From Terriglobia bacterium (GTDB taxonomy: Bacteria; Acidobacteriota; Terriglobia; 20CM-2-55-15), in NCBI GenBank assembly GCA_965218585.1, contig CBDCLE010000003.1, positions 32,001-96,000 of the forward strand: a DNA stretch of 64,000 nt. The letters run 5' to 3'. The notes under the pieces were generated by a model, which made no database searches, had not been told where the DNA came from, and was given only the letters and a program-made list of their open reading frames with translations. Positions 3 to 40,625 of the stretch are shown piece after piece; position 1 is the first letter of the stretch, and every line of letters starts with the position of its first letter. The position numbers and the translations under genes were made by a program.

Positions 3-839
3 GCCCAGGAATGGGGTGCCGAGCGCTCCATAAATCAATTGACCGAGCACGTGTATCGCTGGGGTGCCGACGGGCAGAATGGAATGTTCGTAGTTACATC
101 AGAGGGGATCATTCTGGCAGATGGTCAGTACTGCGACAGGGGTCACGTCTCCTGGCTCAAATCAGAGCTCGAAAGCCGCTTTGGCGTGCCCGTCAAGTAT
201 GTCGTCCTGAGCCACGACCATCAGAGCCACATTTGCGAAACTGGAATGTTTGCCGACACAGCGGTTGCGATTGGTCACAGAAACATCGTGCCGCATATCA
301 TCAGGGAGGGCCGAAACGCCCTGGTACCTGAGATCACCTTCGAGGAGTCAATGGACATTGAGTTGGGCGGCGTGAAGGTGGTCTTGCTCTACCTTGGCCC
401 GCTCCACAGCGACAACTTGATTCAGGTCCATGTGCCGGAGGAGGGCGTGTTGTTCGGGCCCGACTTTGCCCGGGGGACCAATATCTTTCCCGATTTTCGT
501 GATATGGACGTCGACAATATGCTGAAGGCGCTCATTACTGCAGGCTACATGCCCGATGTAGAGATCGTTCTGCCAGGGCACGGCCAGCTCAAGACCCAGG
601 AGAATTTCATCGTGTACCGGCGCTACCTCGAGGCTATCAGAGAGCGGGTGCTCGAGCACCTGGTGGCTGGCAGATCTCTCGAACAGATTCATTCGCTGGT
701 CACGATGGAGGATTTCCGGGGGGAGTACAACATCACCGACCAGAGCCTGAGAAACAACGTCGACTCGATGTACGACTACTTGTATCGTTATCGGGAACCC
801 AACAATCCGGGCGGGTTTCCCGTAAGGGCGGTCAACTAG
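3..839 (+). CDS. MBL-fold metallo-hydrolase (5' partial, degenerate HxHxDH)
   Basis: Frame is open from the window edge (AQEWGAERSINQLTEHVY). Motifs SHDHQSH, GPLHSDN, LPGHG. Confidence 0.8.
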   Translation, partial: AQEWGAERSINQLTEHVYRWGADGQNGMFVVTSEGIILADGQYCDRGHVSWLKSELESRFGVPVKYVVLSHDHQSHICETGMFADTAVAIGHRNIVPHIIREGRNALVPEITFEESMDIELGGVKVVLLYLGPLHSDNLIQVHVPEEGVLFGPDFARGTNIFPDFRDMDVDNMLKALITAGYMPDVEIVLPGHGQLKTQENFIVYRRYLEAIRERVLEHLVAGRSLEQIHSLVTMEDFRGEYNITDQSLRNNVDSMYDYLYRYREPNNPGGFPVRAVN

Positions 840-37960: not shown

Positions 37961-38554
37961 CTAATGCACCCCGAACTTGATCGCTTCCAGAACCGCCTCC
38001 ACCACTTCGGGATCAAACTGAGTGCCCTTGCCCAGGATCAGTTCCTCAGCAGCCTCCCGAGTGGTTAGTGCACGCCGATAGGGCCGATCATTCGTCATCG
38101 CGTCGTAAGCGTCCAGAACTGCAATCACGCGGGAACCGAAAGGTATTTCATCGCCTGCGAAGCCGTTTGGATATCCCGAGCCGTCGTACCACTCGTGATG
38201 GTGCAACACGACATCGGCCACCTGCCTGAAGTTTTCTGTCTGCTGTAGGGCATCGTACCCAAACTGGGCGTGACCCTGCATGATTTGGCGCTCCTCCACG
38301 GTTAGAGGTCCCCGTTTGTGAAGGATGGGATCTGGGATTGCGATCGTACCCAGATCGTGGAGATGTGATGCGGTTTCAACGAGTTGCGTTTCTCTGGACG
38401 AGAGCTCAAAGCGCTTGGCCACCTCCCTGGCGAGGGAGCAGATCCGCTCGCTGTGCATGCCGACACTGCGGTCCCGCATGCGTAGCAGATTGGCGAATGC
38501 CCCGGTTTGTGACTGAATTCCTTCGATTTCCAGCTCTTCAAGTATCGTCGACAT
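37961..38554 (-). CDS. Stand-alone HD-GYP domain protein
   Basis: HSERI, LHDLG, HHHEWYDGSGYP, DAYDAMTNDRPYR, GTQFDP. Confidence 0.9.
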   Translation of the reverse strand: MSTILEELEIEGIQSQTGAFANLLRMRDRSVGMHSERICSLAREVAKRFELSSRETQLVETASHLHDLGTIAIPDPILHKRGPLTVEERQIMQGHAQFGYDALQQTENFRQVADVVLHHHEWYDGSGYPNGFAGDEIPFGSRVIAVLDAYDAMTNDRPYRRALTTREAAEELILGKGTQFDPEVVEAVLEAIKFGVH

Positions 38555-38669
38555 TTGTTTCTCCAGTGATCTGGTCGTTAGTCGGACTTCCCGCCTTCAC
38601 TCAGTTTTATCGGCAGGAACAGCAGAAAGCTTAGTTTTTTTTACGCGGTTCTATGGAAGGGGCTGTCAA

Positions 38670-39035
38670 GAGAAACACGTCCCCGCCGAGCGGACCACCG
38701 GACCCAACACTGTCGTGGCAGCCAGCCCCTGTCTCCGTTGAGACGAACTGTTGATCCGGCATCGCAGAGAAGTCGATCACTCATCACAACGTGGTGTGGT
38801 TTCGAGAAACTGAAAAGCGCAAAGGGGTCGTGATTGCCGACCACGGTTCTATCTGAGCCTCGAGGGCTATCGCTTTTCCAGGTCGTGCGAGGGGGGATAG
38901 AGTATTACATGGGCCTTCAGCAAGCGCTGTGTGCCAACCGCGTATCGGATCCTCACCCTCGACCCTACCGTTCCGACGCCTCACCGACGACGAGCGGTCG
39001 AATGCCTCGCGCTGTCGGCAGAAGTCTGGAAACGG
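38670..39035 (-). ncRNA. Candidate bridge/seek RNA of the IS110 element (boundaries approximate)
   Basis: Structured 3' noncoding region holding a 9-nt copy of the element end (38844-52) and a 7-nt copy of the reconstructed target (38939-45). Confidence 0.55.
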
Positions 39036-40097
39036 CTATGTCGCCAAGTTCAGTTTCTTTGCGTTAAACGTGTCTCCTTTCTTCCACATCTTCAGTGCGG
39101 TCGCTGCAATCTTCCTCGCCAGTGTCAGCCGAGCCATCTCCTTACGCTTGCCGTCTTTCTGGAGCCCCTCCAGGTAGCTTTTCCAAGGTTCGGCCCCCAT
39201 GCCTCCGGTCGCCGCCCCGATGAACACATCTTTCAAACGTCGGTTGCCGTTGCGGTTCAGTCCCCGCGTGGCGATCGGCTTTCGACGACGTACCACACGA
39301 CTCCCTTCCTGCTCATACTCCGCACTCATGTGCATTGCCACGGCCAGACCGCTGTAGTTCCAGAGCTGGCGTTTGGTTCGAAATCGATGCGGGGTGTCCC
39401 CCGTCGCTACAATCAAGGCGCAACGTATCGGTCCCAACTGGGGAATCGTCTGCAATATCCCCACCGCACGATGCTTGCAGCTCTCGGTTAACATCGCCAG
39501 CTTCGCTTTTTTTCTTAACCCTCTCAGATGATCCAGCTCCTCATACAACCATCCGGTACGCCGCCGTGCACCGGTATTGGCGAGCTGTTCGATCCAGTGT
39601 TCCCGCTGCGATGGGAGGTAGACGCCGTGGCCCGGCGTCCGGATCCCACGTCCTCGATACATTGCCTTGATCCGAACCATCGTCCGCTGCGTATCCAGGG
39701 TCAAGGTCTCATATCCGCGGACCAGTTCTTTCAACGTCCGCGTCGCATCGTGCCCGTGGTAGACCGACCGCAGCCATCCGGCCCGGAGCAGCTCGGCCAG
39801 TTTCAGGGCATCCACCCGGTCGGTCTTGGACCCGTCACTGAGCAGTTTGTTCCGTCTGGGATCACACACGATCACTTCGCTCACATATCCCCGGACCACG
39901 TTGTAGAGCCATTCGGCCTGCGTGGTTTCTTCAAACGTCACGTGCAGCTCACCACTCAGACTCTCCAGCAAATCAATGATTGGCCCGGCCTGGGTCTCTA
40001 CGATCTTTTCCCAGACCAGTTTGCCGTCTGCGTTTAAGACCATCACCACCGTCGTTGCCTGGTGCACATCCATGCCGATATACTTGGCCTGTTTCAT
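39036..40097 (-). CDS. IS110-family DEDD transposase/recombinase
   Basis: YIGMDVHQ, VTFEE, KTDRVDA, LQTIPQLG, YSGL..MS, GNRRLK, LARK. Confidence 0.92.
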   Translation of the reverse strand: MKQAKYIGMDVHQATTVVMVLNADGKLVWEKIVETQAGPIIDLLESLSGELHVTFEETTQAEWLYNVVRGYVSEVIVCDPRRNKLLSDGSKTDRVDALKLAELLRAGWLRSVYHGHDATRTLKELVRGYETLTLDTQRTMVRIKAMYRGRGIRTPGHGVYLPSQREHWIEQLANTGARRRTGWLYEELDHLRGLRKKAKLAMLTESCKHRAVGILQTIPQLGPIRCALIVATGDTPHRFRTKRQLWNYSGLAVAMHMSAEYEQEGSRVVRRRKPIATRGLNRNGNRRLKDVFIGAATGGMGAEPWKSYLEGLQKDGKRKEMARLTLARKIAATALKMWKKGDTFNAKKLNLAT

Positions 40098-40205
40098 TTA
40101 CGTGCTCCTTTGTCTTTGAATTCAACGCAGCTACGTTGAATGGGTTGTTGTCGGGAGATTTTCCTCCTGGCAACAGCCGACAAAGGGGCGTCCTTCCTTA
40201 TAGCG

Positions 40206-40625
40206 TATTCCGGAATCGAAATGAAACTCGACGTGAGCGTTAATGAAAATCTCTGGGTGAACCTGGCCCTGGATGCCGTCGACACCGAACTCAAAACCAC
40301 TGCCGAAACACTGCCTCGGATTCCGCCGCTACGAGGAACGATCGGCCTCGATATCCGATACGGCGGCTTGAGCGTAAAGCCGGAGCTCGTGCTGGCGGAC
40401 CGGAGAGACGACGTCTTCAGCACCGAAACGGAAACGGCCGGTTACGGATTGGTCAACCTGACAGCCTCGTATACTGTCCCGCAACCCCACTTCTCACACC
40501 ACCTGTCCCTCAGCTGGTTCAACGCGACAAACACGCTGTACCGCAACCACCTCAGCTTCATCAAAGATCTCGCGCCGGAGATTGGTAGTGGCGTGCGGAT
40601 GTCCTATTCCGTGAAGTTCTTCTAA
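40206..40625 (+). pseudogene. C-terminal remnant of a TonB-dependent receptor
   Basis: LPRIPPLR, ETETAGYGLVNL, NATNTLYRNHLSFIKDLAPEIG, terminal Phe; N-terminal part absent. Confidence 0.8.

Follow-up and report, generated by a model that had tools for sequence, protein, structure and literature searches.

A probably active IS110-family element with an IS1111-type layout and a predicted 3'-end RNA whose loops match its own right end and targets

How does an insertion sequence (IS) that enters one genome repeatedly at the same kind of site recognize that site? The question is raised by an element on the minus strand of a 64,000-nucleotide (64-kb) stretch of a Terriglobia bacterium genome (assembly GCA_965218585.1, contig CBDCLE010000003.1, positions 32,001 to 96,000; hereafter the window, with positions counted from its first letter). 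With a probability of about 90%, we read it as an active IS110-family element with an IS1111-type layout, a term used here to describe the layout, in which RNA from the element's own 3' end chooses the insertion site. The evidence comprises the copies in this genome and their ends, the consensus of their targets, the complementarity of these targets to the non-coding region, the conservation of the fold, and covariation among related genomes.

The element extends from 38648 to 40206 when both copies of its 2-nucleotide (nt) core are included; positions 38650–40204 together with one core make up 1557 bp. Positions within the element (el) are numbered in the direction of the transposase, i.e. 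along the window minus strand, position 1 being window 40205. The genome (26 contigs, 4.55 Mb) contains 16 full-length copies sharing 99.7–100% identity, and the few variable columns inside the copies, aligned with their flanks, include none in the guide segments described below. The impression of an intact element given by the window alone was borne out, with all 16 copies being full length and retaining an open frame of 353 amino acids. In the direction of the gene, the element consists of the core AC, a 107-nt left end, the recombinase gene, a 70-nt spacer, an RNA of ~161 nt with two domains, and a final stretch of ~155 nt that closes with TTGACA, 14 nt finishing in CATAGA, and the core AC. 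A long non-coding stretch after the transposase had been noted from the window, at about 375 bp; it measures 386 nt from the stop codon, compared with 107 nt 5' of the start codon.

The left end (40192–40204) consists of GCTA followed by the subterminal repeat TAAGGAAGG (40192–40200), and includes a -10-like TATAAG (40197–40202). The right end (38650–38669) contains a -35-like TTGACA (38664–38669), the second subterminal repeat (38652–38660), and the terminal CATAGA (38650–38655). The two 9-bp repeats are identical at eight of nine positions here and at all nine in relatives with a TC core, and beyond them the element extends a further 4 nt at the left and 2 nt at the right, to which the 2-nt core is added, i.e. 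6 and 2 or 4 and 4 depending on how the core is assigned. All 16 left junctions read flank-AC-GCTATAAGGAAGG, and the right junctions read ..TTGACAGCCCCTTCCATAGA followed by AC (10 copies), AA (5), or GC (1) and then the flank. The ends are thus common to every copy, and the flanks form one consensus; copies with differing ends or targets would have counted against the original prediction, and on this point the copies speak for it. Contigs from four of the 22 listed sequencing runs, two of them made from RNA libraries, were also compared. Unitigs from two DNA runs end at 38650 and 40206, matching the element borders, and in the DNA-run contigs many differing flanks begin at 38642–38647 and 40206–40208, as is expected because the element is a repeat.

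The sole long frame in 38645–40205 is the transposase (recombinase) gene on the minus strand (39036–40097). Its 353-amino-acid product contains two Pfam domains, the N-terminal, RuvC-like DEDD domain PF01548 (DEDD_Tnp_IS110; E-value 3.7e-17, 63 bits, cut-off 29) and the C-terminal PF02371 (Transposase_20; 4e-9, 37 bits, cut-off 21.3), and this pair of domains confirms, for the IS110 family, an assignment first made from the sequence alone. Distant matches were found in PDB to ISCro4 (1.3e-9) and IS621 (3.3e-7). About 8000 public homologues were retrieved at E-values of 1e-20 or below; the best 120 of these share 69–100% identity, and none of the best 120 carries an IS name. Across 11 aligned proteins, the C-terminal motif is GL-V----[S/T][A/S]: GL never changes, V is present in 10 of the 11 and replaced by I in L130, and the four final residues vary. 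The Ser/Thr position is kept in all 11, and the protein's own motif is GL-V----S-A.

The core is AC (GT on the plus strand, 38648–38649 and 40205–40206), because of three sets of sites in related genomes. The homologous right ends in family relatives always read ..CATAGA followed by two bases (AC or TC), and the left ends always begin with GC, 11 nt before GGACGCCCC. The relative in genome G023 is inserted in a palindromic repetitive extragenic palindromic (REP)-like repeat (TCAAGTCCTGAnAAA-TC-ATCTTGTCGGACGTTGAGAAT), more than 20 uninterrupted copies of which read ..GATAAA-TC-ATCTTG.. with a single TC. In genome G025, the orthologous gene without an insertion reads ..GAAT-AC-CGCGCG.., with exactly one AC and no added base; this site unites the window copy's 5' flank with the 3' flank of a second copy, L002, and its length agrees with an AC core (15 nt) and disagrees with a CG core (14 nt). 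A core of CG or CGC, adopted both in our first model and in the original prediction, is ruled out by these sites. At the element's own junctions, the core copy at 40205–40206 is AC in all 16 copies and that at 38648–38649 is AC in the window copy.

Sixteen insertions allow the target to be described base by base. In the five positions before the core, the majority bases are G (11 of 16), T (9), A (13), A (8), and T (10), and in the seven positions after it C (15), G (13), C (14), G (14), T (13), A (10), and T (11); the target is therefore GTAAT-AC-CGCGTAT. At every position, the majority base is the one found in the two loop sequences of the predicted RNA. As judged from the single consensus of the 16 sites and the single AC in the empty orthologue, insertion is specific for site and orientation, and the only duplication is the short shared core. 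When the genome is scored against the target derived from the loops, only four free places in 4.55 Mb reach at least 12 of 14. The sequence ACCGCGTAT occurs 43 times in the genome, namely in the guide-encoding DNA of the 16 copies, at two occupied junctions, and at 25 free sites, where the left arm never matches at more than three of five positions.

The RNA is predicted on the minus strand at 38807–38967, with a terminal stem followed by UUUUCAGUUU; the fold was computed on 38965–38805. Its target-binding domain (domain 1, 38888–38961) consists of an outer stem, a large internal loop, and a distal hairpin, with the sides of the loop appearing as variable columns in a conserved scaffold. On the 5' side of this loop lies the right-target guide GAUACGCGGU (38937–38946), which is complementary to the top strand of AC-CGCGTATC and includes the CGCGTAT that had been pointed out at 38939–38945 from the window alone. 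On the 3' side lies the left-target guide GUAAUAC (38902–38908), which has the sense of the left flank plus core and would pair with the bottom strand. The donor-binding domain (domain 2, 38810–38881) has a closing stem and a three-way junction with two hairpins, and the strand between the hairpins contains the left-donor guide AUAGAAC (38846–38852), identical to the last five nucleotides of the right end plus the core. This segment is part of the 9-mer CGGTTCTAT, which occurs only twice in the window (38646–38654 and 38844–38852; mean of shuffled sequences 0.30, with 1 of 100 shuffles reaching two). The 9-mer had been equated with the element end plus core; the positions and seven of its nucleotides (38846–38852) stand, but the last two (CG) match the flank and not the circle junction.

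A consensus fold of 17 relatives contains 35 pairs, six with compensatory changes, and keeps both the hairpin GGTCG/CGACC and the outer stem (38811–38881) that had been recognized in the window. In the closing stem of the donor domain, an A-U pair is replaced by C-G (nine versus eight sequences). In this fold, 97.5% of the paired cells are consistent with pairing, compared with 39–52.5% when the partners are slid, and the covariation score (0.123 versus 0.077) was reached by none of 500 shuffles, although such shuffle statistics overstate independence because the relatives aligned are kin.

Evidence that the loops act as guides comes from relatives in which loops and sites have changed together. 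In a family of 35 genomes, transposase relatives with 52–82% identity are present in 10 of the 34 other genomes; a first protein search of genome contigs had given 18 pattern matches, none of which was confirmed. Full copies were collected from G013 (8), G026 (9), and G023 (7), single or remnant copies from G019, G018, G016, G008, G012, and G025, and a solitary RNA-like segment from G024. In the alignment of the 3' regions, the scaffold is nearly invariant and two variable blocks fall exactly on the two sides of the domain-1 loop. The 5' loop block of each family complements its own 3' flank: GAUACGCG and CGCGTATC in this genome; GAUAAGCG and CGCTTATC, a single-base difference from this genome, in G019 and G018; ACAAGAUG and C-ATCTTGT in G023; GUAUAGGCG and C-GCCTATAC in G013; and CCCAAGUUG and C-AACTTGG in G026. 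The mean longest exact complement between the 5' loop and the 3' flank is 6.6 for cognate combinations (n = 46) and 3.4 for non-cognate ones (n = 414), the few non-cognate values of 7 arising between families with near-identical guides. For the 3' loop and the 5' flank, the corresponding means are 4.9 (n = 39) and 3.2 (n = 195). Among distant members, the mean guide-to-flank values are 6.5 (n = 16, including two mispaired rows from a tandemly duplicated locus) and 3.3 (n = 238). The comparison of guides and targets across copies that had been proposed for this locus thus gave an excess of cognate matches for both loops.

The donor guide varies in the same manner. Including distant members, five states are found (ATAGAAC, ATAGATC, ATAGGAC, ATGGAAG, and ATAGACG), each identical to the right end of its own element ~14 nt after TTGAC. 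In total, about 12 target specificities and five donor states are represented, with target loops and donor guide changing together with the element's own flanks and ends; the cores are AC in this genome and TC, CG, or AG in the relatives. Together with the conserved two-domain fold, this covariation supports the proposal, made from the window, that the non-coding end holds guides matching the element's own end and target.

A covariance model (R1) was built from 17 distinct sequences. It matches this genome once per copy (16 matches for 16 elements, with no extras), in the window exactly at 38807–38967, and also matches 12 of the 34 other family genomes; among 150 further genomes sampled from the phylum, 7 gave weaker matches. 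Nine of the 10 distant matches examined lie ~70–160 nt downstream of a transposase homologue on the same strand with 41–51% identity.

Several observations weigh against a functional guide RNA, and some of them bear on the alternative that the matches in the non-coding region are due to chance or are relics of a nested or duplicated end, with the protein alone picking the target. The folding stability does not exceed that of shuffled sequence (z = -0.09 over the 161 nt, +2.1 over the complete non-coding region), so that this alternative can point to a fold without thermodynamic signal, and a search of 38300–40500 against Rfam 15 returned no matches at E-values up to 1. Matching on the left side of the target is loose, from three to seven of seven positions per site, and the right flanks of three copies (L008, L013, and L016) fit the guide poorly. 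The kinship of the relatives, as stated above, inflates the apparent independence of the shuffle statistics. A donor guide for the left end was not established: AUAGC pairs with GCTAT here, but it is constant in relatives whose left end changes and lies partly in a conserved stem. Within the window, moreover, ACCGCGTAT with up to one mismatch is no commoner than in shuffled sequence (10 versus 11.3), making the 7-mer match weak on its own. Chance or relics would nevertheless have to explain why loops and flanks co-change in about 12 specificities and the donor guide in five states, why the scaffold between the loops is nearly invariant and the loops variable, and why the 25 free ACCGCGTAT sites with poor left arms stay unoccupied. 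Already disfavoured by these data, this explanation is in our view highly improbable.

By analogy with IS621, ISEc11, and ISPa11, an RNA-guided element of this kind would move as follows. A circle would be excised, joining ..CATAGA-AC-GCTATAAGG.., and the predicted junction would read ..CCTTCCATAGA-AC-GCTATAAGG..; the junction sequence put forward in the original prediction is one C too long. The circle would bring together TTGACA and TATAAG as a promoter, a pair that had been anticipated, with a spacer of 18 nt once the AC core is used instead of the 19 nt given at first, and transcription from it would read through the recombinase gene into the RNA. The recombinase would then be bound by the RNA, GTAAT-AC-CGCGTAT would be selected through it, and the circle would be inserted by strand exchange at the core, with the conserved Ser/Thr as the probable nucleophile.

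Whether the element still moves is a separate matter, since the copies could represent a recent burst that has fallen silent, the RNA no longer being made. The sequencing runs bear on this point and count against current activity: no circle-type joint was found in the contigs of the four runs, the only joint being a 165-nt skip in one contig at a depth of 2, and the two RNA-library runs consist, where they cover portions of the gene and the non-coding region, of contigs from 90–99% identical relatives, from which no transcript can be demonstrated. Likewise, a promoter scan of the minus strand found no sigma-70-like promoter inside the linear element, although this absence fits expression from the circle-junction promoter or by read-through, and expression in the family is expected only after circularization or by read-through (PMC13626964; here and below, the statements refer to excerpts of the papers cited). 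Set against a silent burst, moreover, the frames and RNA regions are intact in 16 of 16 copies, apart from a 1-nt deletion within a stem in one copy, and the copies are at least 99.7% identical. We therefore regard a recent fossil as quite unlikely.

The place of the element within the family is a further question. The excerpts describe IS1111-type elements as having a long downstream non-coding region, subterminal repeats, and circles that create a promoter (PMC11187229), and for 93% of IS1111 elements a bridge RNA has been predicted, located in the right end (PMC11208160). The layout found here, with its downstream non-coding region and subterminal repeats, agrees with the designation IS1111-type made from the window, but the same mechanism could operate in an element outside strict IS1111, either on an IS110-group branch with a downstream non-coding region, since some IS110-type groups also carry a 3' non-coding region (PMC11187229), or in an unnamed sister group. 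The details pull in both directions. The subterminal repeat of 9 bp (8/9) is below the 11–13 bp described as usual (PMC11187229), but within the range of 7–17 bp given elsewhere (PMC11208160); the extensions (left 4 nt, right 2 nt, and the core) differ from the asymmetric 7 (or 6) and 3 bp of IS1111 elements, and the protein, at 353 amino acids, is just over the quoted 330–350 (both PMC11187229). The C-terminal motif GL-V----S-A departs from GL-P----S(t)G, although IS1111 proteins are reported to have 'TA' occasionally where SG is usual (PMC11187229). Speaking for IS1111, the non-coding region sits downstream, the top-strand match comes before its bottom-strand counterpart, an order shared by every IS1111 seekRNA tested (these are 70–100 nt long, with the top-strand complement 5'; PMC11187229), and the donor nucleotides lie in a multi-loop, as they often do in IS1111 orthologues (PMC11208160). 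A position outside strict IS1111 therefore seems to us possible but somewhat unlikely.

The closest parallels to the element as we read it are ISEc11, ISKpn4, ISPst6, and ISPa11 (Siddiquee et al. 2024, PMC11187229), which, within the excerpted account, share with it a DEDD transposase, a long downstream non-coding region, subterminal inverted repeats, a seekRNA in which the top-strand segment comes first (5') and the segments overlap where insertion occurs, and natural redirection by replacement of only the guide segments, which is known here from sequence; a promoter formed at the circle junction is described for them and predicted here. The present element differs from these four in its shorter repeat (9 bp), shorter terminal extensions, the target GTAAT-AC-CGCGTAT, and V for P and A for G in the C-terminal motif. 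The bridge RNA of IS621 and the IS110 group, as excerpted (Durrant et al. 2024, PMC11208160; Hiraizumi et al. 2024, PMC11208158), is likewise a two-domain RNA with a target loop and a donor loop, its guides include a 2-nt core, and its left guides pair with the bottom strand and its right guides with the top strand. Both the chemistry of IS621 and the function of its handshake bases have been described (PMC11208158, PMC13626964), and the DEDD-plus-Ser chemistry would be expected here too. In contrast to that group, the RNA here lies in the right end rather than the left, the guides follow one another in the opposite order within the loop, a three-way junction takes the place of an internal loop on the donor side, the core is AC rather than CT, and no right-donor guide was identified; the protein similarity to IS621 is distant (E-value 3e-7) and confined to the N-terminal domain. 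The IS110-family element ISPpu9 of Pseudomonas putida, with its RNA Ssr9, has an RNA gene downstream of the transposase and extra RNA copies elsewhere (PMC12288879, in excerpt); the solitary RNA in G024 is comparable, whereas the genome of the window contains no solitary copies (16 matches, 16 elements).

A bolder proposal is that the clade forms a distinct IS1111-like subgroup defined jointly by three-arm RNA reading, asymmetric core exchange, and RNA genes that persist alone, and we consider this combination unlikely. In such a subgroup, the RNA could read the left target, the right target, and the right end, with the protein reading the left-end donor through the subterminal repeat; core exchange could be asymmetric, the left junction always being AC and the right junction keeping AA or GC in six of 16 copies; and solitary RNAs, such as that just after a host gene in G024, might act in trans or have been co-opted.

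RNA guidance of recombination by IS110 and IS1111 elements was already described in 2024, so that the element adds a member to a known mechanism rather than a new principle. It provides a clean natural data set for the less-studied IS1111-type layout, in which the naturally reprogrammed guides are the most useful product: across related genomes, about a dozen different target-guide pairs and five donor/core states are found on a single 160-nt scaffold that is nearly constant, and the ends, the cores, and for some elements the empty sites are known to single-base precision. Testable rules for the scaffold follow, with a right-target guide of 8–10 nt, left-target and donor guides of 5 + 2 nt each, and cores AC, TC, CG, and AG, and the compact 353-amino-acid recombinase is a candidate for reprogramming.

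The surroundings of the window copy have been rearranged. In G025, G023, and G026, its 5' flank continues directly into the 3' flank of L002, and in G023, G024, and G026 the converse junction is found, L002's 5' flank meeting the 3' flank of the window copy, so that each of the two copies now carries one flank of the other's original site. The copies lie ~55 kb apart on contig C3, the second at C3:127.5–129.1 kb. The segment between them (window 40207–64000 and beyond, C3:72.2–127.5 kb) has been inverted, as the two copies are in inverted orientation with exchanged flanks. Scored against the target derived from the loops, the two original sites as reconstructed reach 13 and 12 of 14. Judged by its translation, the flanking open reading frame at 40207–40625 (plus strand) is putatively the C-terminal part of a gene resembling those for TonB-dependent receptors. 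This gene was the original target (site A), and the inversion accounts for the local rearrangement in which it is split between the two copies. We rejected an empty site rebuilt from the window copy's own flanks: the proposed TTAC-GCG-TATTCC never existed as such, because the flanks come from different loci. The match to CGCGTAT nevertheless holds, as this sequence is common to the 3' flanks of most copies.

Variation among the copies was observed at two places near the right end. The copies with AA at the right junction (L009, L012, L014, L015, and L016; GC is found in L011) do not form a clean clade as judged by the remaining single-nucleotide polymorphisms, and AA and GC could arise from where the strands are exchanged, from mismatched targets being tolerated, or from variant donors. 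Window 38701 (el 1505), part of the conserved segment that separates the RNA from the right end, shows a C/A polymorphism, read in the RNA sense, in 6 of 16 copies and also in two sequencing runs, and all four combinations with the AA and AC cores occur.

Other pairings proposed in the course of the analysis were rejected. The candidates for a right-donor guide (AUAGC, GCGA, and the junction strand CCUUUG) do not covary with the left end, and pairing of AGGGGCUG (el 1476–1483) with the right end shows no covariation. A handshake-type U after the right-target guide, pairing with the last A of the right end, is not seen in relatives with a TC core, and a handshake-type CG that follows the donor guide agrees with the flank in no families other than those with a flank beginning in CG, which represent one lineage.

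Two further observations concern the target. The guide-encoding DNA itself (38937–38945, plus strand) contains a perfect core-plus-right-target site, ACCGCGTAT, on the opposite strand, but its left arm is unfit, which may protect the element from self-insertion. In copy L016 (G000:C26:24067–25626), the right flank TGGTCGCA.. fits the right-target guide at three of seven positions and the left arm at seven of seven; this right flank resembles the RNA sequence after the donor guide (..UGGUCGGCA).

The RNA also occurs in unusual arrangements elsewhere. In G024, a solitary 162-nt copy (L126:834–995; G024:C21:284133–284294, minus strand) scores 170 bits with R1 and shares 86% identity with the window RNA; no transposase homologue was found at 1e-20 in the whole of that genome, and none lies within ~800 nt of the RNA. 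The copy begins ~45 nt after the stop codon of a gene on the same strand, and homology is confined precisely to the RNA. L140 (G165) is a possible second example. In G074, a tandem partial duplication (L139:1212–1684) contains a full RNA, a right-end-like sequence fused to a second donor domain, and the real right end, and the target loop of the first RNA matches the flank beyond the last end.

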